From: Candidatus Omnitrophota bacterium
GTDB taxonomy: Bacteria > Omnitrophota > Gorgyraeia > Gygaellales > JAQTUX01
Direction: 5' to 3'
Assembly (NCBI GenBank): GCA_028707125.1
Contig: JAQTUX010000002.1
Location: 272,355 to 336,354, forward strand
Length of the DNA: 64,000 bases
Position 1 is the stretch's first letter; each line of letters starts with the position of its first letter. This document shows positions 14,255 to 52,337 of the stretch, in pieces. The translations under genes and the position numbers were made by a program. The notes beneath the pieces are model-generated. The model did no database searches and was not told where the DNA came from. It saw nothing but the letters and a program-made list of their open reading frames with translations.

Positions 14255-14397
14255 ATTGAATCTTAAACCCTAAACTCTAAATCCTAAACCCTAAATAAAC
14301 CCAAAACCCAAAATTCCAAACCCAAAACGCTATTGCTTTGTAATTGCGTGTTTTGAGTTTTGTGTTTTGACATTTGAGTTTGTTTAGAGTTTAGTGT
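14255..14397. repeat. long imperfect palindrome of 7-bp units: (AAAYCCT/CCCAAAA)n arm facing a (TTTRGGG-like)n arm
   Basis: The left arm (aaaccctaaactctaaatcctaaaccctaaataaacccaaaacccaaaattccaaacccaaaacgc) reads as CCCTAAA-type heptads. The right arm (gcgtgttttgagttttgtgttttgacatttgagtttgtttagagtttagtgtttagggtttagtgtttt) is its imperfect complement with TTTAGGG-type heptads. It lies between the pgi stop and the lipoprotein start. Confidence 0.8.
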
Positions 14398-15690
14398 TTA
14401 GGGTTTAGTGTTTTCCCTACCCAGCAACTCAAACATATTCTTTTTATATGCCTCAACACCCGGCTGATTAAACGGGTTGACACCCTGTATATACGCCGAT
14501 ATCGCTACCGCCTTTTCAAAAAAGAAAAACAGCGAGCCCAAAGAATACGCGCTTCTGTCGGCAATCTTGATTGACATATTAGGCACGCCGCCGTCCATAT
14601 GGGCCTTCCTGGTGCCCACGCGCGCCTGGTTATTGATAAAACTGAAGCCCTTGCCTTTTATATAGTCCAACCCGTCGATGTTTTTGTCCATGGCGGGGAC
14701 TTTAATTTCCCTCTTGGGCTTTTCTACGGCCATAAAGGTCTCAAACAGGTTCCTCGCGCCCTCCTGTATCATCTGGCCTATAGAATGCAGGTCCGTGGTC
14801 AAAACACACGACGCCGGGAATATGCCTTTGCCCTGTTTGCCTTCGCTCTCGGCGAAAAGCTGCCTCCACCACTCCGCGAGATAATACAGGCAGGGATTGA
14901 AACCGGAAAGTATCTCTATATTTTTTCCCTTACGATAAAGCAGCTGCCTTGCCGCGGCGTACCTGTAGGAAATGTTTTTCTCAAGGTCAAGCGCGGAACA
15001 AAGATCTTTCATATCAGAGCCGCCCCTAAGCAGTTCCCTTATGTCTATCCCCGAGGCGGCCTGCGGCAATAAACCTACGGGGGTGAGCACGGAAAACCTG
15101 CCTTCAACGTCCTGGGGTATGAAAAATTTCCGAAAGCCCTCTGAATCGGCTATCTTCTTCAGCGTCCCCTTTTGCCTGTCCGTTGTGCAGATGATCCTTT
15201 TCTTGAGCTGCCGGCTGGAATACCTCTTCTTCATATAGTTATATATCACCCTGAACGCGGCTGCCGGCTCAAGCGTCGCGCCTGATTTGGAGATCACATT
15301 TACGCAAACATCCCTGCCCTTTAGCCCGTCCAACACATCCTGAAGGTAATCAGCGTCAAGGTTAATGCCGGCAAACACGACCTTAAGCCCCTCAGGGCGG
15401 CAAAATTCCAAAGCAGCCCGCGAACCTAAGTAAGACCCGCCGATCCCTATGACTACCAATACCTCGCTTGTCTCCCGAATCTCTCCGGCGCAATTCTCAA
15501 TATCTCTGATCAGCTCATCAGGCGTATCATCCGGCAGATCAAGCCAGCCCAGGGAAGCCCCGCCTTCCCCGGTTCTGTCGATAAGAAGCTCATGCGCCCG
15601 TTTTACTTCACTGAAAATAGAAGCAAAATCTCTGCCGGATATAAAAGGCGATAAATTACCACAATCTAGCTCTATCCTGGTCTTCGGCAT
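14398..15690 (-). CDS. pgi: glucose-6-phosphate isomerase (short bacterial form)
   Basis: 430 aa with conserved PGI motifs (…GIGGSYLG…, …VISKSGATLE…). Confidence 0.85.
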   Translation of the reverse strand: MPKTRIELDCGNLSPFISGRDFASIFSEVKRAHELLIDRTGEGGASLGWLDLPDDTPDELIRDIENCAGEIRETSEVLVVIGIGGSYLGSRAALEFCRPEGLKVVFAGINLDADYLQDVLDGLKGRDVCVNVISKSGATLEPAAAFRVIYNYMKKRYSSRQLKKRIICTTDRQKGTLKKIADSEGFRKFFIPQDVEGRFSVLTPVGLLPQAASGIDIRELLRGGSDMKDLCSALDLEKNISYRYAAARQLLYRKGKNIEILSGFNPCLYYLAEWWRQLFAESEGKQGKGIFPASCVLTTDLHSIGQMIQEGARNLFETFMAVEKPKREIKVPAMDKNIDGLDYIKGKGFSFINNQARVGTRKAHMDGGVPNMSIKIADRSAYSLGSLFFFFEKAVAISAYIQGVNPFNQPGVEAYKKNMFELLGRENTKP

Positions 15691-15691
15691 T

Positions 15692-15988
15692 CTACTTTTG
15701 GATCGGTTTTAATTCCGCGCCGTCAACAGGGCAGTATTTAACGCCCTCTTTATACCTTTTGCCGCATACCGGGCAAAACTTGGCATCCATCTGTTCTCCG
15801 ATAAGCGCCCCTGCCGCGGCGCCGCCCAAGCCTCCGATCACAGCCCCCTCCATCGTATTCCCCGATTGGTGCCCTATGATCGCGCCTAACCCCGCGCCGG
15901 CCGCGGCGCCCACGCCCGCGCCCTTCTGAGTAGTGGTGCATCCGGCCATAACTACCGCCAGAACAATAATAAATATTATTCTTTTCAT
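15692..15988 (-). CDS. glycine-zipper lipoprotein with C-terminal Cys4 zinc-ribbon
   Basis: Start MKRIIFII with lipobox VMAGC, preceded by GGGAGG. Gly-zipper segment GAGVGAAAGAGLGAIIGH…GGLGGAAAGALIG; C-terminal CPVCG-x11-CPVDG. Confidence 0.6.
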   Translation of the reverse strand: MKRIIFIIVLAVVMAGCTTTQKGAGVGAAAGAGLGAIIGHQSGNTMEGAVIGGLGGAAAGALIGEQMDAKFCPVCGKRYKEGVKYCPVDGAELKPIQK

Positions 15989-16005
15989 ATCAACCTCCCT
16001 TTCTT

Positions 16006-17034
16006 CTAAAACAAACCTTCGACCCTGGTATTGCAGGACGGACACAAGCCGCCCTTAAGGTTATTCCGGGAAACGCTGAAACCCTGCCTTTTTATAAGAA
16101 CGGTATTACAATTACCGCAGAATGTGTCTTCCCTGCCTCCGGGCACATTCCCGGTATACACATACTTAAGCCCGGCCGCCTTCCCTAAACCATACGCCAT
16201 CTCTAACGTCTCAACGGGAGTGGCCTCCACATCATTCATTTTGTAATCCGGATGAAACCTTGATATGTGCCAGGGGATCTCCCTGCCGACGGAAGCGATG
16301 AACGCGGCGGCCTCTCCCAGCTCTTCCTTTGAATCGTTAAGGCCGGGGATGACCAGCGTTGTCACCTCGACCCAGATGCCGATCTCCTTCATATGCCGTA
16401 TTGATTCGCATACCGGCTTAAGGCGCGCCTTGCAGACCTTGCGGTAAAACTCGTCGGAAAACGCCTTCAGGTCAACGTTGGCGGCGTCAAAATAACCTTT
16501 TGAAAGATCAAGCGCCTCCCGGGTCATATAGCCGTTTGTCACAAGGATATTAAGCAGCCCCTCTTTTCCGGCAAGCCCCGCGGTCTCATAGGCGTATTCA
16601 AAGAAAATCGTGGGCTCGGTATAGGTATAGGAGATGCTGGCCGCGCCGCCCGCCTTTGCCTGCTTCACTACCTCACGCGGCGGCATTCTCTGCGCCTTGT
16701 CATCCCCGCCTTCACTGTACCCTGTCTGTGAGATCTGCCAGTTCTGGCAAAAACCGCACCTGAAATTACAGCCGTATGCGGCTATGGAAAAGGATTTAGA
16801 ACCCGGAAGCACATGAAAGAGCGGCTTTTTTTCTATAGGGTCAAAATTCGCGGCCGCTACATCAGCGTAAGCGTAAGTATAAAGCCGGCCTTTTTTGTTC
16901 TGCCTGACGCCGCAGAAACCAAACTCACCGTCTTTTATCAAACAACGATGGGAACACAGAAAACAGGAAACGTCATTGCCGGAAACCTGCCTGTAAAGCA
17001 GCGCCTCACTGCGCATTTGAAAACAGGGACACAT
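16006..17034 (-). CDS. amrS: AmmeMemoRadiSam-system radical SAM enzyme (PflA-like activase family)
   Basis: 342 aa. CNFRCGFCQN is a radical SAM CxxxCxxC motif, and an N-terminal Cys cluster (CFLCSHRC…FCG) is present. Overall similarity to the AmrS family is recognised from knowledge. Confidence 0.75.
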   Translation of the reverse strand: MCPCFQMRSEALLYRQVSGNDVSCFLCSHRCLIKDGEFGFCGVRQNKKGRLYTYAYADVAAANFDPIEKKPLFHVLPGSKSFSIAAYGCNFRCGFCQNWQISQTGYSEGGDDKAQRMPPREVVKQAKAGGAASISYTYTEPTIFFEYAYETAGLAGKEGLLNILVTNGYMTREALDLSKGYFDAANVDLKAFSDEFYRKVCKARLKPVCESIRHMKEIGIWVEVTTLVIPGLNDSKEELGEAAAFIASVGREIPWHISRFHPDYKMNDVEATPVETLEMAYGLGKAAGLKYVYTGNVPGGREDTFCGNCNTVLIKRQGFSVSRNNLKGGLCPSCNTRVEGLF

Positions 17035-17077
17035 CCCATCTTTTAGCCGGAAACGAACAGGATGTGTCCCTTTTTTT
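17026..17077 (-). promoter_or_regulatory. 11-bp perfect GC-rich hairpin (GGGACACATCC / GGATGTGTCCC) that pairs the amrS start codon, followed by a T-run
   Basis: Seen directly. The arm at 17026-17036 contains the complement of ATG-TGT-CCC (amrS codons 1-3). The pairing arm is at 17060-17070 and TTTTTTT follows on the plus strand (17071-17077). The 23-nt loop carries a weak SD. Confidence 0.6.
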
Positions 17078-17753
17078 ATTTCTTTGCCTTAACCTTGTCA
17101 ATAAAAGCGGCTACTGAATCCCCGATTATGTCTTTGCAACCCAGGCCTATCGCGATGGCAAGGCCCAAACCCAAAGAGCCGATCAAGATAGTCAAGACCC
17201 TTTCTACTATAACGGCGCCTATCTTCAACTGCTCAAGGACGATCGCGATCGTGAATATTATGGTTATTACCTCGGCAATCTTGCCCAGAAGCTTGCTCTG
17301 TACAACGCCCGCGTTGGCGGTGGCCGCCTGCACGAGCGAACTTAATAAAGTGGCTACGAACATACCCAGGATCAAAACAAAGATAGCGGCGATTATATTA
17401 GGTATGTAAAGCACGATCCTGTTGAGTATGTCGGCGGCGGCAGTCAAGCCCAGGGTATTGACCGCTATAACCAGCGCGATCAACAATATCAACCAATAAC
17501 TGACCACGCTTATGAGTTCAGATACGCTGTACTTAATGCCGCCCTTTGCGAGGATCTCGCCGAGTTTGATCTGTTCGCAGAGCTTGTCCAGAGAAATGAT
17601 ATCCAGCACCTTCAGCACGAGCCTCTTCACAATGCGCGCAATGACCCATCCGACCGCGAGGATCGCCAAGACCCCCAGTATGGCCATAATAAATTCGCCG
17701 ATCTGGCCAAGCATGGTCTTGATGGGCTCCAGCAAAACTACTGTCCAACTCAT
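17076..17753 (-). CDS. membrane protein with repeated conserved TM-helix motifs (MscS-N-terminal-like TM_helix family)
   Basis: Start MSWTVVLL (17753), preceded by GGAGGTG. There are several similar TM segments (…LGQIGEFIMAILGVLAILAVGWVIARIV…, …LLGKIAEVITIIFTIAIVL…). The family assignment is tentative. Confidence 0.5.
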   Translation of the reverse strand: MSWTVVLLEPIKTMLGQIGEFIMAILGVLAILAVGWVIARIVKRLVLKVLDIISLDKLCEQIKLGEILAKGGIKYSVSELISVVSYWLILLIALVIAVNTLGLTAAADILNRIVLYIPNIIAAIFVLILGMFVATLLSSLVQAATANAGVVQSKLLGKIAEVITIIFTIAIVLEQLKIGAVIVERVLTILIGSLGLGLAIAIGLGCKDIIGDSVAAFIDKVKAKK

Positions 17754-17807
17754 ACGCACCTCCTTTTTGCTAACTCTATCACTCCTGAAAAGGCGTGTCA
17801 AGGGTTT

Positions 17808-18584
17808 TTAGACGGGTAAGGTCATACCGTCGTACGCGGCAGAAACGTCTATGCCGCTTTCCCGGGCAAAGGCCTCGCAGAGGATATGCGGCTTATGCGC
17901 GAGCATGGTCATGCCGAAATGCGTAAGTACCGCCTTTTTCGGCCTGATATTCTCAATTATCTTCTTTGCCTCGGGAAAAGAAAGGTGCTGCACATCGGGG
18001 CGCGGTTCATAGAAAACTACGGAAATTATTAATATATCCGCTTTATAGAAATCCTCCAGTCCGCCGAAATAAGCCGTATCCGTGATCAAAGAAACGCTGC
18101 TGCCGGCCAGTTTAATCTTAAGGCCGTATGTCTCTGCCGGATGCCGGTGCCTGGGAGAGGTCATGAATTTAAGATCCTTGACCGCGTACTCCGACTCCGA
18201 CTCCAGAAATTCAATGCGCTCGGGAAAGGCCTCGGCATGCTTTAATATCACGGAGTCAACGCCTATTGTATCCTTGGGACAAAAAACAACTCCTCGTTTT
18301 TTGGACCCGCCTTCGGTCATCGCCTCGATCATAACGTTTATATCGCCTGAATGGTCAAGGTGCCTGTGGGTAAGTATGATGCCGTCCAATTTGGAGGGGT
18401 CAAGCTTCGGCCTGCTCATCGCGCAGCGCGCGATGCTGCCGGGCCCGGGGTCCACGATCACATTGGCTGCCTGCGAATGGATCCATAGCCCGCCTGAGGC
18501 GCGAAGCTGCTTTATCATTACGAACCTCGCGCCGGCGGTACCTAAGAATTTGATCCAGTTATCCGGCTTGGATTCTGTCTTCAT
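17808..18584 (-). CDS. MBL-fold metallo-hydrolase
   Basis: 258 aa with a beta-lactamase-fold metal-binding motif (THRHLDHSGD) and downstream His/Asp residues. Confidence 0.7.
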   Translation of the reverse strand: MKTESKPDNWIKFLGTAGARFVMIKQLRASGGLWIHSQAANVIVDPGPGSIARCAMSRPKLDPSKLDGIILTHRHLDHSGDINVMIEAMTEGGSKKRGVVFCPKDTIGVDSVILKHAEAFPERIEFLESESEYAVKDLKFMTSPRHRHPAETYGLKIKLAGSSVSLITDTAYFGGLEDFYKADILIISVVFYEPRPDVQHLSFPEAKKIIENIRPKKAVLTHFGMTMLAHKPHILCEAFARESGIDVSAAYDGMTLPV

Positions 18585-18618
18585 ATAAACCTTGACGCTT
18601 TAGCACCTTGATACTTGA

Positions 18619-19092
18619 TCACTTAAGCCAGACCTTACGCAGCTCCTCCGTGATCCTGCGTTCCTGAGAAGAATCGATCTCTGCCTTAGGGATACGCCCT
18701 GATATGTCCTTCTTTTGGCCCTTCATAATAAAATCTGATGAGCCCATAACGCACACGCCCAGCGCCTTCATTGAAGCGCGAAGCTCCCTGTCATCGGAAA
18801 CAACTATTATGTCCCGAGGTTTACCGCCTGCCCCCGCGATCTGCCGTATCTTATCGTCCGCGGAGGACGAGCCGCTGAAGACCACCTCAATTCCCCCGCG
18901 TCTTTCCTGAAAGGCGGGATCGGCATTACCGTCAAAGACAACCGTTACCCTGTTCCTTTTGGAACCGCAGACATTATTATTGATTATGAAATCAACCAGG
19001 CGTGTTTTATGGTCTTCGAGAGCCGAATTAACTTTAGGAAAGCCGCGCCTTTTTGCGACGTTGAAGCCATCTAGAATGTAATGCAAAGGCAT
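18619..19092 (-). CDS. NYN-domain (YacP/Rae1-like) predicted ribonuclease
   Basis: 157 aa. N-terminal …ILDGFNV… and acidic residues (…VVFDG…, …VVSDD…) typical of YacP-like NYN/PIN nucleases. Confidence 0.6.
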   Translation of the reverse strand: MPLHYILDGFNVAKRRGFPKVNSALEDHKTRLVDFIINNNVCGSKRNRVTVVFDGNADPAFQERRGGIEVVFSGSSSADDKIRQIAGAGGKPRDIIVVSDDRELRASMKALGVCVMGSSDFIMKGQKKDISGRIPKAEIDSSQERRITEELRKVWLK

Positions 19093-20940: not shown

Positions 20941-20944
20941 ACGG

Positions 20945-21682: not shown

Positions 21683-21685
21683 TTA

Positions 21686-22543: not shown

Positions 22544-22545
22544 TT

Positions 22546-30769: not shown

Positions 30770-31735
30770 TTAGCTGAGCAGTTTGATTAAAGCGTAAAAT
30801 TCATCCGTATTAAATTCTTTCCTGGTTATAGCCGATTTCAGGTCTACTTCGCCTATATTGCCGTCGCGTAATCCCACGACCTTATTGACCTTGCCCTTAA
30901 GCAGGCAATCTACGGCGTGCCTGCCCAGCCTCAACGCCAATTCGCGGCTGGCGGCGGTAGGGCGGCCGCCTCTTTGCACATGGCCCAGCACTACCGCGCG
31001 CGTATCCAGATCAGTCAGGTCTTTGATCTGAGCGGCGATGTCTTCTGCCCTGGCCGCGCCCTCGGCAACGACAATGATCCAGCTGACCTTCCCCCTTAGA
31101 TTGCCCTCTACTATATCGTGGCAGATATTCCCTATATCAAATTTTCTCTCCGGGATTATCACCTCTTCGCATCCGCCGCAGAGAGCCACAGAGAGCGCGA
31201 TATAGCCGCTGTCCCTGCCCATCACCTCTACCACAAAGACCCTCTCCATAGAGGTCGCGGTATCGCGTATATTATCAATGGCGGAAAGCGCCGTGTTTAT
31301 CGCCGTGTCCGAACCTATGGTCGCGTCTATTCCGTTAATATCATTATCTATGGAGGCGGGGATGCCGGCCACGGGCACCTTGTATTTCAGATAAAATTCA
31401 TGTGCCGCCGTGAAACTGCCGTTGCCGCCGATGACCGCCATCGCGTCTATGGAATACTTCTTCAGGGTCTCGTATGCCCTCTTCTGGCCTTCCTCGGTAT
31501 GGAACTCCGGGCAGCGCGCGGTCTTAAGTATCGTCCCTCCCTGATTGATTATCCCGGAGACAGAACGGCTGTTCAATATCCTGGTCTCATCGTTGATCAG
31601 GCCCCACCAGCCGCGTTCTATCCCCCTTACCTCTAAACCATGGGCTTGCGCTGAACGCACCACTGACCGTATTGCCGCGTTCATCCCCGGCGCGTCCCCG
31701 CCGGTGGTCAATACAGCTATCTTCTTAATGGACAT
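30770..31735 (-). CDS. pfkA: ATP-dependent 6-phosphofructokinase
   Basis: 321 aa with GGDAPGMNAAIR, …GGNGS…, and a GRDSG-type substrate motif (MGRDSG); the GGDGS motif reads GGNGS here. Confidence 0.9.
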   Translation of the reverse strand: MSIKKIAVLTTGGDAPGMNAAIRSVVRSAQAHGLEVRGIERGWWGLINDETRILNSRSVSGIINQGGTILKTARCPEFHTEEGQKRAYETLKKYSIDAMAVIGGNGSFTAAHEFYLKYKVPVAGIPASIDNDINGIDATIGSDTAINTALSAIDNIRDTATSMERVFVVEVMGRDSGYIALSVALCGGCEEVIIPERKFDIGNICHDIVEGNLRGKVSWIIVVAEGAARAEDIAAQIKDLTDLDTRAVVLGHVQRGGRPTAASRELALRLGRHAVDCLLKGKVNKVVGLRDGNIGEVDLKSAITRKEFNTDEFYALIKLLS

Positions 31736-31740
31736 ATGCT

Positions 31741-31836
31741 TTAGCGAAAAGTGTAAAGCGCAAAGCGTAAAACCAAAACTTAAAGTTTAAAGTTTTACAC
31801 TTTAGTTTTGCGCTTTTCGCTTTACGTTTTACGCTT
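31741..31836. repeat. heptad-phased imperfect palindrome (GCGNAAA)n…(TTTNCGC)n, copy A
   Basis: Seen directly: agcgaaaagtgtaaagcgcaaagcgtaaaaccaaaacttaaagtttaaagttttacactttagttttgcgcttttcgctttacgttttacgctt. Shares a 42-nt core (1 mismatch) and a 23-nt block with the element at 50221-50345. Lies between the pfkA start and the ahcY stop. Confidence 0.85.
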
Positions 31837-33102
31837 CTAAGTTCCTTCTTCCCAACTGGAAAGATACTTCTCCTGCTTTGGCGTCAATCTATCCACCCTT
31901 ATCCCCAGGGATTTCAATTTCAAAGCGGCGATGTCTTTGTCTATTTCTTGAGGCACCGAATACACCTTCTTCTCAAGAAAGCTGTAATTCTTACTTATAT
32001 ATTCCGCTGAAAGCGCCTGGTTCGCGAACGACATATCCATGACCGAAGCGGGATGGCCTTCTGCGGCGGCGAGGTTGATCAGGCGGCCTTCTCCTAAAAG
32101 ATATACCCTCTTTCCCGCGGCAAGCGTGTATTCATCCACGAATTCCCTGATCCTGCGTTTCTTCCTTGCCATCTTTTCCAGGTCGGATATGTCTATCTCC
32201 ACGTTAAAATGGCCTGAATTGCATACTATGGCGCCATCCTTCATCTTTTGAAAATGTTCCTTTCTTATTACGCTTATATCGCCCGTGGTGGTCACGAATA
32301 TATCGCCTATGGCGGCGGCCTGCGCGACAGGCATGACCATATTGCCGTCCATTACCGCCTCAAGCGCCCTTAAGGGGTCTGTCTCCACGACTATTACGTT
32401 AGACCCCATCCCCTTAGCCCTCATGGCTACGCCCCTGCCGCAGAAACCGTAACCGCAGACAACAAAGCTCAGGCCGCAGAGGAGCTTGTTGGTCGCGCGC
32501 AATATGCCGTCTATTGTGGACTGGCCGGTGCCGTAACGGTTGTCAAAAAGATGCTTTGTATCCGCGTCATTGACGGCTATGATCGGGTATTGCAGCGCCG
32601 CGTCCTTCTCCATCGCCTTAAGCCGTATTACTCCGGTCGTGGTCTCCTCTGTCCCCCCCAATATCCCCTCAAACGCGCCTCTCTTGTGAATGGTGGAAAC
32701 CAGGTCCGCTCCGTCATCCATGGTTATGTTCGGATTTATGGAAAGCGCCGCGTCAATATGCTTATAATAGGTCTTTGTGTCTTCGCCTTTGATGGCAAAG
32801 ACAGGGATGCGGAAATCCTTCACTAAAGACGCTGCCACGTCATCCTGAGTGGACAGCGGGTTTGAGGCGCAGATCGTAACGTCTGCCCCGCCAATTTTTA
32901 GCGCGTTAGCCAACACGCCGGTCTCAGTCGTAACGTGAAGACAGGCGGCGAGTTTTATGCCCTTAAGCGGCCTCTCTTTTTTAAACCTTTCTTCTATCAG
33001 CCCCAGAACAGGCATATTATTCTTTGCCCATTCTATCCTTAATTTACCCTTTGCCGCTAATCCTAAGCTCTTGACATCATACTTCACTTTAATCCTCCTC
33101 AT
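31837..33102 (-). CDS. ahcY: adenosylhomocysteinase
   Basis: 421 aa with a NAD Rossmann (…[11 protein letters not shown]…) and conserved SAHH motifs. Confidence 0.9.
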
Positions 33103-38750: not shown

Positions 38751-38785
38751 ACAGTAGCCTCCTCTTGTGTATTTTTTTATCTAAG

Positions 38786-38858
38786 AGCGGGAGACGGGGT
38801 TCGAACCCGCGGCAACGACGTTGGCAACGTCGCACTCTACCAACTGAGTTACTCCCGC
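38786..38858 (-). tRNA. tRNA-Gly (anticodon GCC)
   Basis: Hand-folded cloverleaf: acceptor GCGGGAG/CTCCCGC, anticodon loop TTGCCAA, T-loop GGTTCGAAC, discriminator U. CCA is not encoded. Confidence 0.85.
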
Positions 38859-38983
38859 AGTAAAGCAGAACTAAGAATTAAGAGCTAAGAACTAAGATGA
38901 CATCTATGAACCCATCCAAAACAAACAACAAAAAAATTCCCTTTTGCCCCTTAATTTTTTCTTAGTTCTTAATTCTGCCTTTA

Positions 38984-39065
38984 TGGGCGGAAGAGGATTT
39001 GAACCTCCAAGGGTTGCCCCAATAGCTCCTAAGGCTATCGCGTATCCCAATTCCGCCATCCGCCC
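38984..39065 (-). tRNA. tRNA-Leu (anticodon TAG), type II with long variable arm
   Basis: Acceptor GGGCGGA/TCCGCCC, 3-bp D-stem, anticodon loop CTTAGGA (U33, G37), variable stem GGGG/CCCT, T-loop TTCAAAT, discriminator A. CCA is not encoded. Confidence 0.8.
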
Positions 39066-41905: not shown

Positions 41906-41964
41906 AGAATCTGCTTTACTAACGCTTCTTCCTTGATTTTAGTTTATTTGACTATATTTTATAA

Positions 41965-41992
41965 ATTATACCAAAAAAAACCTAATATGCAA
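41965..41992 (-). promoter_or_regulatory. sigma70-like promoter for rpsB operon: -35 TTGCAT, 16-nt spacer, -10 TATAAT
   Basis: Seen on the minus strand as ttgcat-attaggttttttttgg-tataat, about 60 nt upstream of the rpsB start. U-rich spacer. Confidence 0.55.
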
Positions 41993-42055
41993 GATTTTTC
42001 CCTGAATTTTGCCATTAAGCGGGGATTATCCTCCTTCGCTCATCAAATTGCTAAC

Positions 42056-42099
42056 GATGGTAGAGCTTCGGAGGATTAATCCGCCGAAGCCCTACCATC
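42056..42099. promoter_or_regulatory. 44-bp perfect palindrome GATGGTAGAGCTTCGGAGGATTAATCCGCCGAAGCCCTACCATC
   Basis: Seen directly. The centre is GGATTAATCC, and related GGATTATCC motifs lie at 42023-42031 and 42125-42133, the last overlapping the msbA-like stop. It sits between the msbA-like 3' end and the rpsB promoter and is not followed by a U-run on the transcribed strand. Confidence 0.6.
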
Positions 42100-42127
42100 A
42101 TTTACCCATTGATGTGGCGTAGGCGGA

Positions 42128-43915
42128 TTATCCTATTTCCTGGAGGGAATATAATTGCTTGTATAGGCCGTTTTGACCCAGCAGTTCTTCGTGGCTGCCC
42201 TGCTCAACTATTCTGCCCGCGTCAAGCACGATGATCCTGTCCGCGCTCCTCACGGTTGAAAGCCGATGGGCGATAATAAAAACCGTCCTGCCGGCAATAA
42301 GCGTATCCAGCGCCTCCTGCACTATCCTTTCGGACGTGCTGTCCAGCTGAGAAGTGGCCTCATCCAGAATAAGTATGGGCGGGTCCTTAAGCAACGCCCT
42401 TGCTATGCATAAACGCTGTTTTTCGCCTCCTGATAACTTAGCCCCCCTGTCTCCGATAAGCGTATCATACGCGTCGGGAAGCGACTCTATGAACTCATGG
42501 GCATGCGCCTTCTTTGCCGCCTCCATGATCTGAGCGTCTTTCGCGTCCTTCCTGCCGTAGGCAATGTTCTCCCTTATCGTATCGTTAAAAAGTATTGTTT
42601 CCTGGGTAACAATGCCCATCTGCCCCCTGAGAGACCTCAAGGATACGCCGCGTATATCCACGCCATCAATAAGAATACGGCCGCGGCCGGGGTCGTAGAA
42701 CCTCGGCAATAGATCGACGAGGGTGGACTTGCCTACGCCGCTTTTGCCTACTATCGCGAGCACCTCTCCCTTCTTGATCTCTATGTTGATATCCTCAAGC
42801 ACCGGCTGTGAGCCGTAGCTGAAATTGACCCCTTCATACACTATCTTATGCTTGATGACTGCCAGCAAGGGCGCTTGCGGCCCTTCCGCGACTGTGGAAA
42901 CAGTATCCAGCACATCGTAAACCCTGCTTGAAGCCACCAGCGCCTGCTGGTTTAACGTGCTGACCTGGCTCAACTTTTTAAGCGGCCTGATCAGAGAGAA
43001 AAGCGAACCCAGGAATAAGCCGAACACGCCGAAAGAGATCTTCCCGGAAATCACATCTTTGCCGACCCATGCCAGGATAAATACGCCGAATATTACGCCG
43101 ATCAATTCCGTCGCCGGGCTCAACAAGAGCGTGCGCTTGATGGACTTCATTGACAGCTTATAATAACCCTGATTCTGGCTTCTAAACTTCTCTATTTCAT
43201 GGTCTTCCATGCAAAATGCCTTCACTATCCGCGCGCCGCTTATCGTCTCAACTAAAAGCGAGTTTATATCCGCCATCTTGTCCTGGGAGCGCCGGGAGAT
43301 CTTACGCAGCACCTTGCCGACCTTAATGATGGGCAGCGCGACCATGGGAAGAAGCAAAAGCGATACTAAAGCCAGTTTCCAGTGTATATAGAATATGGTG
43401 AAGGAAAAAACAACCACCAGAAACGACTGATACACCAGGTCCGTCGTGCCGTAGGAAAGGGCGTTCTCCACCAGCTTCACGTCATTGGTGATCCTGGAAA
43501 TGAGCTCGCCTGTGCGCTTCTTGATAAAATACTCCAGCGATAAGCCCTGGATCTTCTCGTAAAGGCGGTTACGGATATCGCGCACGCACAACTGCCCTAT
43601 ATCGGACATATAATAGGAATATAAGAAATTAAACAGGCCCTTTAGTAAAAATAAAACGGGCATGATCAGGATGATGATCCTCAGCAACTCCATCTGGGAC
43701 ATAGAGTTAATAAGCGAGATCAGCTTCTCCATGCCGGAAGGCAGCCCCACAGGGAAAACGATCTTGCCGTTATTGAAGACCTTGTCCACTACGGGCACAA
43801 ACATGGCGATAGAAACCCAGTCAAATAAGCTGGAAATCGCCATAAACAATACGGCTAAGCCGAGAGTCCCTTTATGCGGCCTGAGAAAACGCAAAAACCT
43901 CATATAATCTTTCAT
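42128..43915 (-). CDS. ABC transporter, fused permease/ATPase (MsbA-like lipid exporter family)
   Basis: 595 aa. Six-TM N-terminal domain, Walker A GKSGVGKST, ABC signature LSGGEKQR, Walker B ILILDEATS. Divergent from the lpxB pair. Confidence 0.8.
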   Translation of the reverse strand: MKDYMRFLRFLRPHKGTLGLAVLFMAISSLFDWVSIAMFVPVVDKVFNNGKIVFPVGLPSGMEKLISLINSMSQMELLRIIILIMPVLFLLKGLFNFLYSYYMSDIGQLCVRDIRNRLYEKIQGLSLEYFIKKRTGELISRITNDVKLVENALSYGTTDLVYQSFLVVVFSFTIFYIHWKLALVSLLLLPMVALPIIKVGKVLRKISRRSQDKMADINSLLVETISGARIVKAFCMEDHEIEKFRSQNQGYYKLSMKSIKRTLLLSPATELIGVIFGVFILAWVGKDVISGKISFGVFGLFLGSLFSLIRPLKKLSQVSTLNQQALVASSRVYDVLDTVSTVAEGPQAPLLAVIKHKIVYEGVNFSYGSQPVLEDINIEIKKGEVLAIVGKSGVGKSTLVDLLPRFYDPGRGRILIDGVDIRGVSLRSLRGQMGIVTQETILFNDTIRENIAYGRKDAKDAQIMEAAKKAHAHEFIESLPDAYDTLIGDRGAKLSGGEKQRLCIARALLKDPPILILDEATSQLDSTSERIVQEALDTLIAGRTVFIIAHRLSTVRSADRIIVLDAGRIVEQGSHEELLGQNGLYKQLYSLQEIG

Positions 43916-43939: not shown

Positions 43940-43968
43940 TTGACTTTCCACAAGGTATTTGTTATGAT
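43940..43968 (+). promoter_or_regulatory. sigma70-like promoter: -35 TTGACT, 17-nt spacer, -10 TATGAT; predicts a near-leaderless transcript for the downstream oxidoreductase-lpxB pair
   Basis: Seen directly. The -10 ends 8 nt before the ATG at 43977 and no SD is visible. Confidence 0.45.
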
Positions 43969-43976
43969 GATGAATT

Positions 43977-47170: not shown

Positions 47171-47659
47171 TTAATATGATATCGCTATCCTCTTATTCTC
47201 CTGCCTTTGCTTCAACACGACCCCGTCTTCCTTGTATTTCTTTAACAGGAAATGCGTGACCGTGCCGCGCACGTTCTCAAGGCAGGAAAGCTTCTCAGCG
47301 ACAAAATTGGACACAGTATTGATATTCCTGCCTTCCACAACCACCAGAAGGTCGTAGGTGCCGGAGATCAGATAACAGCTTGTAACCTCCGGAAAAGAAT
47401 ATATGCGCTCCGCGATCTTATCAAAACCCGCGTCCTTCTGAGGGGTAATATTGACCTCTATCAAAACCCTGACATTGGAATCATCGTCATTGATAAGGTC
47501 TTTATTAATAACCGTCTTGTACTTTAATATTATGCCCGACTTTTCGTATTTCCCGATCTTTGCCTTTACTTCTGCCGGCTTTTTCTTCAGCATCCTGGCT
47601 ATATCCTCGGGCGTGGTGCGCGCGTCCTTCTCCAAAACCTCCAGTATCTCGTCCATCAA
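47171..47659 (-). CDS. Lrp/AsnC-family transcriptional regulator
   Basis: 162 aa; N-terminal HTH (…LEKDARTTPEDIARML…) and C-terminal RAM/ACT-like domain. Confidence 0.75.
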   Translation of the reverse strand: MMDEILEVLEKDARTTPEDIARMLKKKPAEVKAKIGKYEKSGIILKYKTVINKDLINDDDSNVRVLIEVNITPQKDAGFDKIAERIYSFPEVTSCYLISGTYDLLVVVEGRNINTVSNFVAEKLSCLENVRGTVTHFLLKKYKEDGVVLKQRQENKRIAISY

Positions 47660-47666
47660 ACCCTCC

Positions 47667-48401
47667 TCACTTTATATGGAAGATCTCAGGCATGCGCCTC
47701 TTGTGCCCTGATCTCCTGATAGCGCCTTTAACCTTCGCCGCCTTGCCTTTGGAAACGGGCGGCCTCTTTTTATTTTCTAAACATTCTAAGATGCCGTCTA
47801 ACTCCCTGTAGGTTATGCCCATCTCGCCTTCATCTGTCTGCCCCAGCCACAGGCCCGCGCTGGGAGGTTTATAAATGATATGGCGGGGGATGCCCAATTC
47901 CTCCGCCAGCGTCCTTACCTCCGACTTAAGCAGGTCTCCCAGGGGCAGTATATCCACTCCGCCGTCTCCGTATTTGGTAAAATAACCCATCATAATTTCG
48001 GATTTGTTGCCTGTGCCGCACACTAAATAATTGTATTTATTGGCAAAATAATAGAGCGTGATCATGCGCAGCCGCGGCTTCAGGTTATGCGCGGCCATAC
48101 TGCCTCCGGCAGGCAGGATCCTCACCAATCTGTCAAATATCTCCGATAGATCCACGGTCCTGGTCTTTATGCCGATTTTCTTTGCCGCGATCCTGGCGTC
48201 CCTGAAGTCGGCGATATTGCTGTGGCAGGGCATGATCAAACCCAGGGTGTTATTCCTGCCTGCCGCCTCCTTCACCAGGGCAGCCGCTACCGAAGAATCC
48301 ACTCCGCCTGAGAGCCCTATAACCACTCCCCGCGCGCCTGACTGCCTTAGCTGCCCCTTGATCCAACTGATCATCCTGCGCTTAACGCCGCTTTTCTTCA
48401 T
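47667..48401 (-). CDS. nadE: NH3-dependent NAD+ synthetase
   Basis: PP-loop …GLSGGVDSSV…; size fits the short ammonia-dependent form. The start is uncertain (alternative Met at 48374). Confidence 0.8.
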   Translation of the reverse strand: MKKSGVKRRMISWIKGQLRQSGARGVVIGLSGGVDSSVAAALVKEAAGRNNTLGLIMPCHSNIADFRDARIAAKKIGIKTRTVDLSEIFDRLVRILPAGGSMAAHNLKPRLRMITLYYFANKYNYLVCGTGNKSEIMMGYFTKYGDGGVDILPLGDLLKSEVRTLAEELGIPRHIIYKPPSAGLWLGQTDEGEMGITYRELDGILECLENKKRPPVSKGKAAKVKGAIRRSGHKRRMPEIFHIK

Positions 48402-48790
48402 TATTGCGAATCCTTCAAGGCCATCAGCGAGATCTTATGCAGGACCACCTTTTCCAGAAAATCAAGGGTGAACGGCTTGTTTATATAATCATCCGCGCCC
48501 AATTCCTTTGCCCTCCTGATATTCTCTTCATCCTGTAGTCCGGTAAGCATCAGGATGCGGGTCCGCGGGCTTTCCTCTTTGATCTCTTTCAATACATCCA
48601 TCCCCGAAGAGCTCCCCAGCTTGATGTCCAGAAGGACAACCGCGGGAGAAAAGCTGCGGAATATGTCCAACGCCGCGTCCTTATCCTGCGCGGCCAATAC
48701 CTCATAGCCCCTCTTTTCCAGGAAGGACCTGGTTATATCGCAAATGTCCTGCTCGTCATCCACAATGAGAATCTTGGTCTTCTGCCGCAT
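48401..48790 (-). CDS. stand-alone response-regulator receiver domain (CheY-like)
   Basis: Start MRQKTKILIVDD, preceded by AGGAGG. Has the acidic pocket DD, the phospho-acceptor Asp in …VLLDIKL… and a conserved Lys (…YINKPF…). No output domain. Confidence 0.8.
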   Translation of the reverse strand: MRQKTKILIVDDEQDICDITRSFLEKRGYEVLAAQDKDAALDIFRSFSPAVVLLDIKLGSSSGMDVLKEIKEESPRTRILMLTGLQDEENIRRAKELGADDYINKPFTLDFLEKVVLHKISLMALKDSQ

Positions 48791-48821
48791 TATCTTGCCT
48801 CCTGGCTCCACTGTGTGGTCG

Positions 48822-49511
48822 CTATTTTATCTCCGCGCTCAGTATTACTGCCTCGGCGATCTGCCGCATTGATTTCCTGCTGTCCATTGAATGCCGCTGC
48901 ATTACTTTGTATGCCTCTTCCTCCGACAGCCCCTTCTGCTTCATTAATATCCCTTTTGCCCTTTCAATAAGCTTGCGGCTCTCAAGCTCCTCCTGAATGA
49001 CCTTGGTCTTTACCATCAGCTCGGTATTTTCAATGACCAGAGCCGCCTGGTTTGCCACCGTGGTCAATATCTCGATCTCGCTCTCTGTAAATTTATGCGG
49101 CTTTGAAGTATACAGGTTGAGCGCGCCTATGGCCTTATTCTTGACCATCATCGGGACGCACAAAAGCGACACCAGGCCGTCTTTCCCGGCGATATCTTTA
49201 AACTTGTAGTCCTTGTCTTCAAGGACATTATAGACCGTGCGCGGCTTCTTGCTCAGGACAACCTTGCCTGCCACGCCTTCGCCGATCCTGAGCGGCCCCT
49301 TTTTGTTGTATCCTTCCGAAATTGACTGGGACGCCCTTATGGCCAGCACCTTCTGCTTTTCATCTATCAACATAAGCGAACAGACGTTTGAGCCCATCGC
49401 CTGGGCGGTGACAGTGACGATCAGCTTCAAGATATCCTCTAAATAAAGGTCGGAGGTGATCGCCTTGCCTATCTTATAAAGCGCCTCTATTTTATCCTTT
49501 GTCTGAGCCAT
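48822..49511 (-). CDS. GAF-domain plus ANTAR-domain RNA-binding antiterminator
   Basis: 229 aa; N-terminal GAF-like region and a C-terminal ANTAR helix pattern (…EELESRKLIERAKGILMKQKGLSEEEAYKVMQRHSMDSRKSMRQIAEAVI…). Confidence 0.7.
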   Translation of the reverse strand: MAQTKDKIEALYKIGKAITSDLYLEDILKLIVTVTAQAMGSNVCSLMLIDEKQKVLAIRASQSISEGYNKKGPLRIGEGVAGKVVLSKKPRTVYNVLEDKDYKFKDIAGKDGLVSLLCVPMMVKNKAIGALNLYTSKPHKFTESEIEILTTVANQAALVIENTELMVKTKVIQEELESRKLIERAKGILMKQKGLSEEEAYKVMQRHSMDSRKSMRQIAEAVILSAEIK

Positions 49512-49542
49512 AGCAATATTGTAATCGGAAAATCGGGTATAG

Positions 49543-50226
49543 TCAATATCTTCCCTTGCAGGCCTTCACACACACCCCGCAGATATACTGGCCGACCAGG
49601 CCGCTGTTTTGAAACTCCTTCAGTTTTTCAAAACAAGCGGTGTGATCAAAATCTTCCCGTCTTTGCTTTATGGCCCCTCGGGGGCAGGCCTGTATGCAGG
49701 CGCGGCAGTCCCCGCAGCCATCCGCGGCCGGGCTGTCCGACTTAAGCGGCATATCGGTAAGAATGGTAACGATCCTGAACCGGCTGCCCAACTGCCTGTT
49801 TACCAGAAGGTTATTCCTGCCGATCCAGCCCAGGCCCGCGAGGTAACCGATCTTTTTATGAGAAAGATGCGCGCTCTGTTTTACCCAATCCAGGATCTGA
49901 GAAGCGGGTATGGGTAACGCGGAAAAACCCCTGCCGGATATCAAACCTGACAGCCTCAATGCAATCTGGTCAAGCATCATATTGACAGCGCGGTAATGAT
50001 GAAAATAAAGTTTGGTGGGGTGGTCTTCTATTTCATCCAGTATCGGCCCTGACAGCGCGGCCCCCAGGCACACAGCCCTGTCTAATTTCTCTAAGACAGC
50101 GGCGGCGATAGTAAATTCATTCTTTACCCCGGATATATCCGCCACGCCGAACAGCCGCGCCCCAAGCTCCATCGCCTTCTCTTTGAGCAGATTGTAATTA
50201 TTCGTAGTATCCATATCACTCAACAA
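49543..50226 (-). CDS. QueG-like (DUF1730 plus 4Fe-4S dicluster) protein, short form
   Basis: 227 aa; …GLGWIGRNNLLVN…GSRFRIVTILTD… resembles the epoxyqueuosine reductase core, followed by CGDCRACIQACP and CGVCVKAC. It is shorter than canonical QueG (about 380 aa). Confidence 0.45.
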   Translation of the reverse strand: MLSDMDTTNNYNLLKEKAMELGARLFGVADISGVKNEFTIAAAVLEKLDRAVCLGAALSGPILDEIEDHPTKLYFHHYRAVNMMLDQIALRLSGLISGRGFSALPIPASQILDWVKQSAHLSHKKIGYLAGLGWIGRNNLLVNRQLGSRFRIVTILTDMPLKSDSPAADGCGDCRACIQACPRGAIKQRREDFDHTACFEKLKEFQNSGLVGQYICGVCVKACKGRY

Positions 50227-50345
50227 ACGTAGAGCGTAGAGCGCAAAGCGTAAAACTAAAACTTAAAGTTTAAAGTTTTTTGTTCTGTAGTTTTAAGCTT
50301 TACACTTTAGTTTTGCGCTTTTCGTTTTACGCTTTTCGCTATCTT
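50221..50345. repeat. heptad-phased imperfect palindrome (GCGNAAA)n…(TTTNCGC)n, copy B; right arm overlaps the mnmG 3' coding end
   Basis: acgtagagcgtagagcgcaaagcgtaaaactaaaacttaaagtttaaagtttt…acactttagttttgcgcttttcgttttacgcttttcgc. Shares a near-identical core with copy A. The segment 50293-50334 encodes the Lys-rich MnmG tail KRKTKSAKLKCKA. Confidence 0.85.
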
Positions 50346-52209
50346 TCAAACCAATCTTCTTAATCCACACCATCAACACCGCGACCGCCGCGGGCGTGAC
50401 CCCGGGTATACGCAGCGCCTGCCCCAGAGACAGCGGCCTTACCCTGCCCAATTTATCCCTGATCTCGCGTGAAAGGCCGTTGAGCCCGTTATAATCCATG
50501 CCCGCCGGGACCTTTATCTTTTCCAGGTGGCGGAAGCGTTCAACCTCCGCCTTTTGCCTCTCGATGAACCCGGAGTATTTCATTTCCGTTTCAATTAAAA
50601 ATGCCGCCCTTTCATCGAGGCGCAAGCCCCGGCAATCCAGCTCCCGTAATCTGCGCAGGTCTATCTGCGGGCGCTTCAGCAATTCCGCGAGCGTAACCTC
50701 TTTTCTCAAGGCCGGGCTGCCGAATGAGTTAAGCTTTGAGTTAACCTCCCGCGTCGGCTTTATCCTGCTTGACATTAGCGCCTCTGTGCCTTCCTTTACC
50801 GCCTTTATTTTATCCCGGGTCTCTCTGTATTCCTCCCTGCTTACAAGGCCGAGCCCAAACCCCATCTCTCTTAACCTTATATCGGCGTTGTCCTCTCTCA
50901 ACAGGAGCCGGTATTCTACCCGCGAGGTAAACATGCGGTAGGGCTCATCAGTGCCTTTTGTGGTAAGGTCGTCTATTAAAACGCCTATGTAGGCCCGCGA
51001 CCTTTCCAATACAAAAGGGCCTTTGCCCTTTACCGTTAAGGCGGCGTTTATCCCGGCGATCAGGCCCTGGGCAGCCGCCTCTTCGTAACCGGTCGTCCCG
51101 TTTATCTGGCCGGCGAGATAGAGATTTTTTACGCGCTTTGTCTCTAAACTTGGCAGATTTTCCCTGGGGTCCACGACGTCGTGTTCTATGCCGTATCCGA
51201 AATCTATGATCCCGGCATGTTCCAGCCCTTCTATGGAATGGACCATTTCAACCTGCGCCTCTTCAGGTAAACTTGTGGATATGCCGTTAGGGTAGATCCG
51301 GTTATCCTCTCTGCCTTCCGGCTCAAGGAAAACCTGGTGCCTCACCCTGTCGGGGAATTTCACTACTTTATCTTCAATGGACGGGCAATAACGCACACCC
51401 GTTGCCTTTATCAGGCCTGTATAAAGAGGCGAATACTTCAGGTTGTCGCGGATGATCTTGTGCGTGCGTTCGTTTGTATATGTTATATAACAAGGCGCCT
51501 GTTTTAATTTAAGCCCCTTATTGGTAAAAGAGAACGGCCTGGGGTCGGCATCGCCTTCCTGGATCTTGAGACGGGAAAAATCTATCGTCGCCTTATCAAG
51601 CCGGGCGCAGGTGCCTGTTTTAAAACGCATGATCCCAAACCCCAGGGACCTCAATGACTCGGATAATCCCATGGCCGCCTCTTCATCCTGCCTGCCTCCG
51701 GGAAAATTCCTCAAGCCTATATGGATCTTGCCTCCGGAGAATGTTCCGGGCGCGATAACAACCGTTTTTGAGAATATCTCTTCATCTTTAGTCCTGACGC
51801 CGTTTACGCTGCTGCCTTTGACCAGCAGGGATATGACCTCCGCCTGTTTAAGGCAGATGTTGCTTTGTTTTCCCAGGGCCTTTCTCATATATTCTTTATA
51901 CCGAAAGCGGTCTATCTGGGCCCGGCTTGACCAGACAGCAGGCCCCTTTGACGCGTTTAAGATCCTGAACTGCAGTCCGCAGGCATCTGCCGCCTTTGCC
52001 ATCTCCCCGCCCAGGGCGTCTATCTCCTTTACCAGCTGGCCCTTGCCTACACCGCCGATCGCGGGATTGCAGGACATATGGCCGATCTGCTCCAATCTCA
52101 AGGTAACCAGCAGGGTATTACAACCCATCCTTGATGCAGCTAATGCAGATTCAATACCTGCGTGCCCGGCGCCGATGACTATGACATCATACATATTATT
52201 TGTCGTCAA
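50293..52209 (-). CDS. mnmG: tRNA uridine-5-carboxymethylaminomethyl(34) synthesis enzyme MnmG (GidA)
   Basis: …YDVIVIGAGHAG… FAD motif and a conserved MnmG body. The ORF-track start is TTG at 52209; a canonical ATG (MYDVIVIG) lies at 52194. Confidence 0.85.
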   Translation of the reverse strand: MTTNNMYDVIVIGAGHAGIESALAASRMGCNTLLVTLRLEQIGHMSCNPAIGGVGKGQLVKEIDALGGEMAKAADACGLQFRILNASKGPAVWSSRAQIDRFRYKEYMRKALGKQSNICLKQAEVISLLVKGSSVNGVRTKDEEIFSKTVVIAPGTFSGGKIHIGLRNFPGGRQDEEAAMGLSESLRSLGFGIMRFKTGTCARLDKATIDFSRLKIQEGDADPRPFSFTNKGLKLKQAPCYITYTNERTHKIIRDNLKYSPLYTGLIKATGVRYCPSIEDKVVKFPDRVRHQVFLEPEGREDNRIYPNGISTSLPEEAQVEMVHSIEGLEHAGIIDFGYGIEHDVVDPRENLPSLETKRVKNLYLAGQINGTTGYEEAAAQGLIAGINAALTVKGKGPFVLERSRAYIGVLIDDLTTKGTDEPYRMFTSRVEYRLLLREDNADIRLREMGFGLGLVSREEYRETRDKIKAVKEGTEALMSSRIKPTREVNSKLNSFGSPALRKEVTLAELLKRPQIDLRRLRELDCRGLRLDERAAFLIETEMKYSGFIERQKAEVERFRHLEKIKVPAGMDYNGLNGLSREIRDKLGRVRPLSLGQALRIPGVTPAAVAVLMVWIKKIGLKDSEKRKTKSAKLKCKA

Positions 52210-52337
52210 TTACCAATTAGCCAATTCCCAAATCCCAATAAATGACCAATTAGTCAATTCCCAATTGGACCTTGGGTAATTGAGCATTTATTTGGCATTG
52301 GTAATTGGTCATTGGAAATTTATTCGGATTTATTATA
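52206..52337. repeat. heptad-phased imperfect palindrome (CCAATTN)n…(NAATTGG)n
   Basis: caattaccaattagccaattcccaaatcccaataaatgaccaattagtcaattcccaattgg / ccttgggtaattgagcatttatttggcattggtaattggtcattggaaatt. Fills the whole mnmG-apgM intergenic space. Confidence 0.8.

Follow-up and report, generated by a model that had tools for sequence, protein, structure and literature searches.

Tandem repeats with a 7-nt unit were already known from cyanobacteria in 1990, and in many bacteria they are over-represented. Mazel and colleagues reportedly described them in that year, in heterocystous cyanobacteria, as short tandemly repeated repetitive (STRR) heptanucleotide sequences, and Elhai and colleagues are said to have described, in 2008, small palindromic elements nested in cyanobacterial heptamer arrays; the units of STRR1-3 are CCCCAGT, TTGGTCA and CAACAGT. 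STRR arrays form hairpins between co-transcribed genes such as hupS and hupL, for which roles in transcript stability or translational coupling have been proposed (PMC2670836). The GGGAATC repeats of Xanthomonas and the GGGGAYT repeats of Nostoc form intergenic G-rich heptamer arrays, mostly between co-directional genes and mostly transcribed, which differ in length and sequence between close species and include closely spaced inverted pairs capable of forming stem-loops (70 pairs among 186 arrays in Xcc, 75 pairs among 183 arrays in Xac); the excess of heptamers has tentatively been put down to the footprint of the polymerase in slippage (PMC4692102). Here we describe five palindromes built of heptamers, E1 to E5, in a 64-kb stretch (the window) of the Candidatus Omnitrophota assembly GCA_028707125.1 (contig JAQTUX010000002.1, positions 272,355 to 336,354). 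With a probability that we put at roughly 60%, they belong to a dispersed, propagating, slippage-prone class of DNA repeats, which we call heptamer-array foldbacks. Omnitrophota have such foldbacks in abundance, and at least one Parcubacteria genome has them too; copies stand at unrelated loci within one genome, and at orthologous spacers elements have been gained, lost or replaced.

An earlier note, made from the sequence alone, had placed four such palindromes and a tRNA-spacer variant in the window. All five are there, at the same coordinates or a few bases away (Table 1), and E1 is longer than the note had it: its right arm reaches ~14414, beyond the stop codon of the upstream gene, instead of ending at 14397. 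The elements are imperfect palindromes of 100-160 bp with arms of phased 7-nt units; they hold ranks 1, 2, 3, 8 and 15 among all inverted repeats of the window, and they are AT-rich, with a GC content of 31-34% where the window as a whole has 51%. Each occupies the space from a stop codon to the next start codon (E1-E4) or from one tRNA to the next (E5), among genes that are almost all on the minus strand and housekeeping or metabolic in kind.

Lag-7 autocorrelation in E1 to E5 is 0.62, 0.65, 0.64, 0.50 and 0.49 (window mean, 0.25), with z-scores against shuffles of 9.6, 8.4, 9.1, 6.2 and 5.1, so that the 7-nt period stands out as the note had expected. Its description of arms made of tandem heptamers is borne out by the period-7 arrays that Tandem Repeats Finder (TRF) reports on the arms of all five elements, except that E4 mixes 7- and 8-nt spacing and is the least regular of them (68% matches, 17% indels). 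The predicted minimum free energies of the transcribed (minus) strand are -54.6, -36.4, -33.5, -39.9 and -35.7 kcal/mol for E1 to E5, with RNA fold z-scores of -8.4, -4.1, -2.4, -4.3 and -3.7: four of the five fold far better than shuffles, and E3 is the weakest. For single-stranded DNA, folded with DNA parameters, the corresponding z-scores are -7.9, -4.6, -2.9, -4.4 and -3.0. The folds consist of runs of 5-12 pairs broken by single mismatches at the variable position of the unit. Both the lag-7 and the fold z-scores agree with the note that the pattern is beyond chance.

Table 1. Heptamer-array foldbacks and other features of the window (positions counted from the first letter of the window; ranks are among all its inverted repeats).
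Feature	Position	Strand	Context	Sequence and repeat details
E1	14259..14414		Upstream, PGI-family gene (14398-15690, minus); downstream, 123-aa ORF (13883-14254, minus)	CYCTAAA/CNCAAAA-type heptamers facing TTTAGRG/TTTTGNG units; TRF period 7, 10.3 copies; period-7 arrays 14264-14332, 14350-14413
E2	31741..31838		Upstream, AdoHcy hydrolase (TAG stop, 31837-31839); downstream, PFK; ends 5 nt short of the PFK start codon (31735)	GCGNAAA/ACTNAAA ("GCG") family foldback; 42-nt arms, 79% complementary; rank 2; period-7 arrays 31743-31771, 31794-31836
E3	50221..50345		Upstream, mnmG; downstream, gene for a Fer4-domain protein	Second GCG-family copy; 47-nt arms; rank 1; period-7 arrays 50228-50252, 50306-50338
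E4	52204..52337		Upstream, apgM; downstream, mnmG; fills the spacer	CCAATTN-type units, mixed 7/8-nt period; rank 3; period-7 arrays 52207-52266, 52297-52320
E5	38862..38981		tRNA-Leu (38984-39065, minus) and tRNA-Gly (38785-38858, minus); fills the spacer	Outer stem of AGAACTA-type heptamers; 94% complementary; rank 15; period-7 array 38867-38897
Last codons and TAA stop of PGI-family ORF	14398..14415	minus	Outer units of E1 arm	Reads ...GAAAACACTAAACCCTAA
MnmG C-terminal tail and stop	50293..50346	minus	E3 arm; mnmG ORF 50293-52209	KDSEKRKTKSAKLKCKA
Start regions behind E1-E4	14240-14254, 31722-31735, 50200-50214, 52180-52194	minus		
Promoter-like sequence	52332..52360	minus	Shares bases with the apgM stop codon; lies just upstream of E4	TTGTAA-N17-TATAAT; consensus scan 10/12
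Canonical bidirectional terminator	17020-17076			AAAACAGGGACACATCC ... GGATGTGTCCCTTTTTT
Direct heptamer run	18585-18618		Fills a 34-nt spacer	CCTTGAN-type; lag-7 identity 0.48; no inverted arm
Palindrome	11209-11249		Directly upstream of Rrf2-family regulator gene (10749-11192)	20-nt arms, TTCTTGATAAATGATACCAT / ATAGTATCATTTGTCAAGAA
Palindrome	42041-42114		In the 222-bp spacer 41906-42127, upstream of gene 42128-43915	40-nt arms; repeated GGATTATCC/GGATTAATCC motifs
Spacers without heptamer array	11193-11294, 13093-13375, 41906-42127, 55921-56036, 59462-59589			~100-280 bp

The heptamers do differ between copies, as the note had stated, in E1, E4 and E5. E2 and E3, on the other hand, are homologous, with 97.5% identity over 40 nt and 90% over 52 nt and a 22-nt indel in the loop; nhmmer matches fall on both arms of E2. 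Members of this GCG family share an order of unlike units, AGCGTAA AACTCAA AGCGCAA AGCGTAA AACYAAA ACTTAAA ACTYAAA, followed by a loop and the complementary arm. JGI metagenome contigs contain 29 exact matches to a pattern of 21 specified bases, GCGCAAAGCGTAAAACNAAAAC, taken from the arm of E2 and E3; in ~24 cases the architecture is complete, and units outside the pattern itself are shared as well (AGCGTAA AACTCAA before it, ACTTAAA ACTYAAA after it). A related search was made in GTDB contigs, a set with one genome per species in which, by a MnmG protein scan, the source genome and its near kin are not among the representatives. There a more general pattern of 22 specified bases, AAAGCGNAAAGCGNAAAACNAAAAC, has 43 loci, against a chance expectation that we estimate, for uniform base composition, at ~0.07 matches; 27 of these loci are in 18 Omnitrophota metagenome-assembled genomes (MAGs), with at most five loci per MAG. 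The 29 metagenome and 43 GTDB loci include further copies of the kind that the note had proposed to count.

Outside Omnitrophota, AAAGCGNAAAGCGNAAAACNAAAAC matches with the foldback architecture were found in Parcubacteria, Atribacteria and unclassified MAGs, the rest (Limisphaerales, Flavobacteriaceae, Alistipes and others) being plain (GCGAAAA)n runs or coding sequence. MAG bins may include misassigned contigs, and the sole case checked is the Parcubacteria contig L041 (L-numbers denote retrieved comparison loci or contigs): the homologues of its SecY are exclusively from the candidate phyla radiation, so that it is genuinely parcubacterial, and it carries a rplF-rpsE-rplO-secY-adk-map operon with three intercistronic heptamer foldbacks. 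The window's own MnmG is identical to a protein annotated from a Candidatus Omnitrophica MAG, on a 510-kb contig, and by protein comparison its close homologues are all from Omnitrophota. The comparison loci were mostly fetched with the GCG-family pattern, so that copy numbers are lower bounds and context statistics are ascertained; ORF calling in them was crude, and the source genome is covered by the window plus 8 kb of flank.

The GCG family is one of many. A periodicity scan of the retrieved loci found further unit families (GTTAGGA/TCCCAAC, TACAAGC/CCTGCAG, ATACTNG/CGAGCAT, CGTACAG, CCAACAG and GCACAAA/ATCCAAA); in the 8 kb of one contig, L075, lie six heptamer arrays, all but one of them foldbacks, and a relative of E1 lies at an unrelated locus of another Omnitrophota MAG (L054, 3345-3499; 86% over 63 nt). 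A census of periods in 307.5 kb of Omnitrophota sequence gave 63 segments of period 7 (3470 nt), 13 of period 6 (416 nt), two of period 8 (99 nt) and none of periods 9-12. From the pattern matches, the scan and the census together it follows that several families coexist, and that the constant 7-nt period and inverted layout with varying units, which the note had remarked on in the window, are the general architecture across the retrieved loci.

Two kinds of nested feature were seen in these loci. GC-rich mini-palindromes, of which there are none in the window, are embedded in heptamer foldbacks of other genomes (CCTGCCTGCCGGCAGGCAGG, TCCCGC..GCGGGATCCCGC..GCGGGA, AAGGTCCGAAGGACGC and AAGGTCGCGAAGCGACAC; loci L015, L037, L043, L046, L075; L009, L028, L070, L071, L076; L022, L044; L057, L060), and have the look of tiny mobile repeats forming a second layer. 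A contig that was binned as Saccharibacteria (L050, 2610-2996) has a heptamer palindrome whose loop contains a tRNA gene; upstream of the gene is a T-rich arm of the GCG type, downstream an A-rich one, and E4-like CCAAATT-type arrays adjoin.

Comparison of orthologous spacers shows how readily the elements come and go. The closest relative, L002/L149, is syntenic with the window (MnmG 75% and PFK 82% identical), has no element in its mnmG-fer4 spacer (38 nt) or its AdoHcy-PFK spacer (62 nt), and has a foldback between ilvD and ALS, which in the window are 3 nt apart. E3 is missing from the orthologous spacers of L002, L003 and L037, and 22 kb of sequence from the L003 lineage shows no foldback at all. 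The apgM-mnmG spacer, filled by the CCAATTN-type E4 in the window, holds a related short hairpin in L002 and GCG-family foldbacks in the more distant syntenic genomes L037 and L059. Further contigs and strains differ as well: L016 and L027, with flanks 97% identical, have different elements at one site; L034 and L064 (88% identity) differ by a block replacement and an 8-nt unit indel; and in the L148 strain, with a PFK 98% identical, the 33 nt preceding the PFK ATG differ. The E2/E3 pair, the several copies per MAG and the gain and loss at orthologous sites suggest that copies move, or are copied, between spacers, and the changes of arms by whole units point to slippage. Of the possibilities raised in the note, a propagating element is the best fit, given the E2/E3 copies and the presence of the same family in dozens of other genomes.

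The elements mostly reach to within ~10 nt of both flanking ORFs, and in places they overlap them. ORFs that run into the arms stop there, because units of the NNNTAAA type put TAA in all three frames, 7 being coprime to 3; the PGI-family ORF ends in this way in E1, and mnmG in E3. The tail encoded by E3 makes up the last 17 residues of MnmG and is lysine-rich: the Pfam SAM_GIDA_C domain stops at residue 613 of 638, and the MnmG of relatives terminates ahead of the tail. Foldbacks can in this manner append spurious or novel C-terminal tails to annotated proteins. At their other ends, the genes downstream of E1-E4 have no AGGAG-type ribosome-binding site, and all start in an ATATG context. Operon-first genes have a canonical site, for example the ribonucleotide reductase (RNR) gene with AAGGAGA, and the element-free AdoHcy-PFK spacer of L149 carries the ribosome-binding site GAGGAGAG. 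The hexamers of the promoter-like sequence beside E4 are conserved in L002, L037 and L059, and a -10-like TAYAAT after the apgM stop codon is kept though non-coding; judged by sequence, it is a candidate internal promoter for mnmG, in which case E4 may be a 5' leader hairpin.

A hairpin selected in the mRNA would be expected to have G-U pairs that benefit the transcribed strand. Of 40 elements compared, 16 fold more stably on the transcribed strand and 24 on the opposite one (Wilcoxon p = 0.72), with a mean difference of 0.3 kcal/mol and with 159 G-U pairs on the transcribed against 158 on the opposite strand, a result that lends no support to the RNA-level function considered in the note. Of the arms that bear the pattern, 15 lie on the coding strand and 16 on the other; orientation is random relative to transcription. 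In the 41 GCG-family members, the AAA and GCG columns are almost always paired, and mismatches at the variable position, the fourth of the unit, make up 19/34, 24/37, 31/41 and 23/40 cases; with a mismatch as the usual state, this position is free, not compensated. Of 62 foldbacks, 46 begin with the A-rich arm (among non-GCG families, eight are A-first, seven mixed and four T-first). "A-rich arm first" is common, yet no rule outside the GCG family, and an apparent conserved asymmetry of the arms within that family proved to be an artefact of choosing arms by the search pattern.

A mechanism that would account for these observations is that the class is maintained mainly at the DNA level, with new copies arising by copying between loci, through either a transposition-like or a recombination route. 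Arms would grow, shrink and become symmetrical again via slippage of units and intrastrand template switching, and their complementarity would be kept by such switching or by selection against loss of the fold. Operons would tolerate an element because its transcript folds back, bringing the upstream stop and the downstream start together, and the three-frame stop codons of the arms would cap any invading ORF: with insertion near-neutral and invading frames capped, elements would be tolerated in spacers only. Effects on mRNA processing or stability, for instance through cleavage by RNase III or a block to exonucleases, would be likely but secondary. The elements also have two hallmarks of MITEs (miniature transposable elements with inverted repeats): they are short non-coding dispersed copies with sequence identity (90-97.5% for E2/E3), and they have terminal inverted repeats, the outermost unit being AGCG.../...CGCT in most members.

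Several results weigh against this reading. There is no transposase among the annotated genes of the window, nor was an autonomous partner for the elements found among them, and a tblastn search of the window with the Y1_Tnp protein of L003 gave a best E of 5.5, which is not significant. The flanks of ~40 members show no consistent target-site duplication; the filled and the empty orthologous spacers have drifted too far apart for the junctions of the elements to be placed. Both neighbours were called for 43 foldbacks: 41 of these sit between co-directional ORFs, one between convergent and one between divergent ORFs, and this excess is not above the background of the same genomes (388:24:24). 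An exact 22-base pattern is common to 18 divergent MAGs (MnmG ~65% identical) and a second phylum despite fast turnover; this would call for horizontal spread, a molecular drive or a conserved (binding) factor that constrains the pattern, and none of the readings considered here explains it. Finally, four genomes have a foldback between apgM and mnmG, which could mean that a hairpin is selected there. As to a vehicle, the GCG pattern has no match in viral contigs and E2 none in plasmids, so that there is no sign of a phage or plasmid carrier. The telomere-like E1 pattern, TAAACCCTAAACNCTAAAC, was uninformative: in viral contigs it matched only (CCCTAAA)n, in several cases on giant-virus (GVMAG) contigs. 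In L003 (9405-9881), from a related Omnitrophota genome, and in L004, a Y1_Tnp (IS200/RAYT-like) gene flanked by ~40-nt inverted repeats lies upstream of mnmG, in the place of apgM.

The main rival is that the elements are selected intercistronic RNA modules acting in the polycistronic transcript or tRNA precursor, as RNase III sites, as 3'-exonuclease barriers, as 5'-leader stabilisers that set how stable cistrons are relative to one another, or by juxtaposing stop and start for termination-reinitiation coupling. Such roles would fit the exact stop-to-start or tRNA-to-tRNA extent of the elements, their location in operons that need read-through (such as the spc operon in L041), the occupation of the apgM-mnmG spacer by differing sequence families, the lack of AGGAG-type sites behind E1-E4 alongside GAGGAGAG in the element-free spacer of L149, and the transcript stability and translational coupling already proposed for STRR hairpins (PMC2670836). 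The transcribed strand, however, shows neither better folding nor extra G-U pairs, the variable unit position is mostly mismatched and not compensated, the unit sequences are many and unrelated, and elements are missing from orthologous spacers of close relatives and replaced between strains 97-98% identical; on balance we regard this explanation as rather unlikely. Much less probable is that they are unusual bidirectional intrinsic terminators, with an A-rich 5' arm and a U-rich 3' arm on either strand and UUU(U) ending each unit. Their place at gene 3' ends and beside tRNA genes would suit such a role, as would the prevalence of A-first arms, but that polarity is weak outside the GCG family. 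A terminator scan flags nothing in them except one internal sub-hairpin of E4; the stems are AT-rich, of 45-61 bp, and no U-tract follows the base; the next start codon is ~5-20 nt away, leaving no room for a promoter; and three elements lie inside a ribosomal-protein operon of Parcubacteria. Ordinary intrinsic terminators, with GC stem and T-run, are used elsewhere by this genome, as at 17020-17076. For these reasons the elements are not classical terminators, in keeping with the note, which had treated that outcome as the contrary case.

A further alternative starts from the near-invariance of AAA and GCG, with one free position per unit, and from the conservation of AAAGCGNAAAGCGNAAAACNAAAAC in 18 Omnitrophota MAGs and in Parcubacteria although local turnover is fast: the arrays could be heptads bound cooperatively by a conserved protein, or uptake-signal-like motifs built up by biased DNA uptake or recombination, a process that would account for one short motif being common to many genomes. 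Heptads of 7 bp are the binding sites of the omega repressor of pSM19035. Against this stand the many unrelated unit families in one genome and the location of the sites in spacers of housekeeping operons, not at promoters or partition sites; with no candidate protein identified, we find this account very doubtful. That the elements are chance low-complexity sequence, or an artefact of assembly, might be suggested by their AT-richness and by two other Logan contigs, from short reads, which terminate inside the E1 and E2 arms. This has a negligible probability in view of lag-7 z-scores of 5-10 and fold z-scores down to -8.4, the 100% identity of E4 in an independent Logan contig (L001), and the recurrence of the same architecture in more than 50 contigs of unrelated projects. 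A bolder form of the propagation hypothesis is that the foldbacks are a mobile or self-generating element, shared across phyla (Omnitrophota and Patescibacteria), with heptamer arms that a dedicated enzyme would make or move, and that they may also act in RNA as a "self-closing spacer" across whose hairpin base ribosomes reinitiate. Reinitiation of this kind would explain the missing ribosome-binding sites behind E1-E4; we nevertheless consider the combination unlikely. If true, the mobile-element or self-closing-spacer idea would offer a handle on the excess of 7-nt repeats in prokaryotes.

The note's statement that the foldbacks take up the only sizeable gaps of the gene array does not hold, since five other spacers have no heptamer array (Table 1). 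The 283-bp spacer among these is probably coding, as a 56-aa gene is called there in Logan contig L147 (943-1113). The 222-bp spacer with its 40-nt-arm palindrome matches no Rfam family at the gathering threshold. The palindrome upstream of the Rrf2-family gene, at which a Logan contig stops, is probably its operator, and the CCTTGAN-type direct run could be what is left of an array, or a seed from which one might grow. The window RNR gene (53623-55920, 765 aa) has no intein; that of L002 (5081-8536, 1151 aa) has one with a LAGLIDADG endonuclease.

Among non-heptameric repeats, ERIC/IRU and Correia/NEMIS elements are MITE-like imperfect palindromes of ~100-150 bp in transcribed intergenic regions of operons, in enterobacteria and Neisseria. 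Their RNA forms long hairpins that can be processed (by RNase III in the case of Correia) and that alter mRNA stability, and Correia elements, in addition, end in defined repeats and duplicate a TA target. In organisation the foldbacks come nearer to both than to the heptamer repeats: they are like them in being discrete, in their conserved order of unlike units, in their size of ~100-150 bp, in dispersal, in occurring in either orientation and in being present or absent at orthologous sites. They differ in that ERIC and Correia elements have no internal 7-nt periodicity, and, from Correia elements, in showing neither a target duplication nor a defined terminus beyond whole units. The Foldback (FB) elements of Drosophila and other eukaryotes are kilobase-scale, with inverted arms of 10-31-bp sub-repeats; long inverted arms made of tandem sub-repeat arrays that vary by whole units are a likeness, as an architectural analogy only. 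REP, BIME and REPIN sequences are GC-rich, 20-40 bp long, with GTAG/CGTC heads and RAYT transposases (PMC3116915, PMC3733652). They too are dispersed extragenic palindromes, often in hairpin doublets, for which roles in mRNA stability have been proposed, but the present elements are 100-160 bp long with 31-34% GC, are built of heptamers, and have no GTAG/CGTC head in alignments.

The note had not recognised the family as a described one, and the elements are indeed neither REP nor BIME and belong to no Rfam family: in a window-wide Rfam search three tRNAs alone reached the gathering threshold, and a permissive search of the elements gave only eukaryotic miRNA-precursor hairpins, on both strands, at 36 bits or less against thresholds of 77-211. 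Precedents for the heptamers do exist, the nearest in the STRR sequences (PMC2670836) and the next in Xanthomonas (PMC4692102). Like the STRR sequences, the foldbacks lie in non-coding DNA, are built of 7-nt units in tandem, come in several families within a genome and can form hairpins between co-transcribed genes; small palindromes nested in the arrays are a further likeness, seen in the foldbacks of other genomes. Their hosts, however, are Omnitrophota and Parcubacteria, their units are AT-rich (GCGNAAA, ACTNAAA, CCCTAAA, CCAATTN, AGAACTA) and are not those of STRR1-3, and each is a separate element of two arms in which unlike units keep a conserved order, where an STRR array is a run of one heptamer. 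Closely spaced inverted array pairs in intergenic DNA link them to the repeats of Xanthomonas and Nostoc. These, by contrast, are known from Proteobacteria and cyanobacteria only, consist of one G-rich unit with G-quadruplex potential in place of many AT-rich ones, and have no reported conserved order of multiple units; among our elements G3 tracts occur only in the TTTAGGG/TTTTGGG arm of E1, and in none of the units of E2-E5. Full-text searches of the literature on Omnitrophota and Patescibacteria found no description of such repeats, and the class is apparently undescribed for these groups, although its kind has precedent in cyanobacteria and Xanthomonas.

On the practical side, short-read contigs may break inside the elements, as two did, and the elements are possible strain markers. 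As a system, they are a tractable one for studying the origin and spread of such repeats, the reason for a length of 7 nt, and the tolerance or use by operons of a 100-bp hairpin. To what is known of heptamer repeats in other bacteria, the foldbacks add that such structures are a common feature of Omnitrophota and reach at least one genome of the Parcubacteria (candidate phyla radiation); that discrete foldback families can be recognised by sequence across many genomes; and that elements can lie inside essential operons, once between ribosomal-protein genes, and turn over between near-identical strains.

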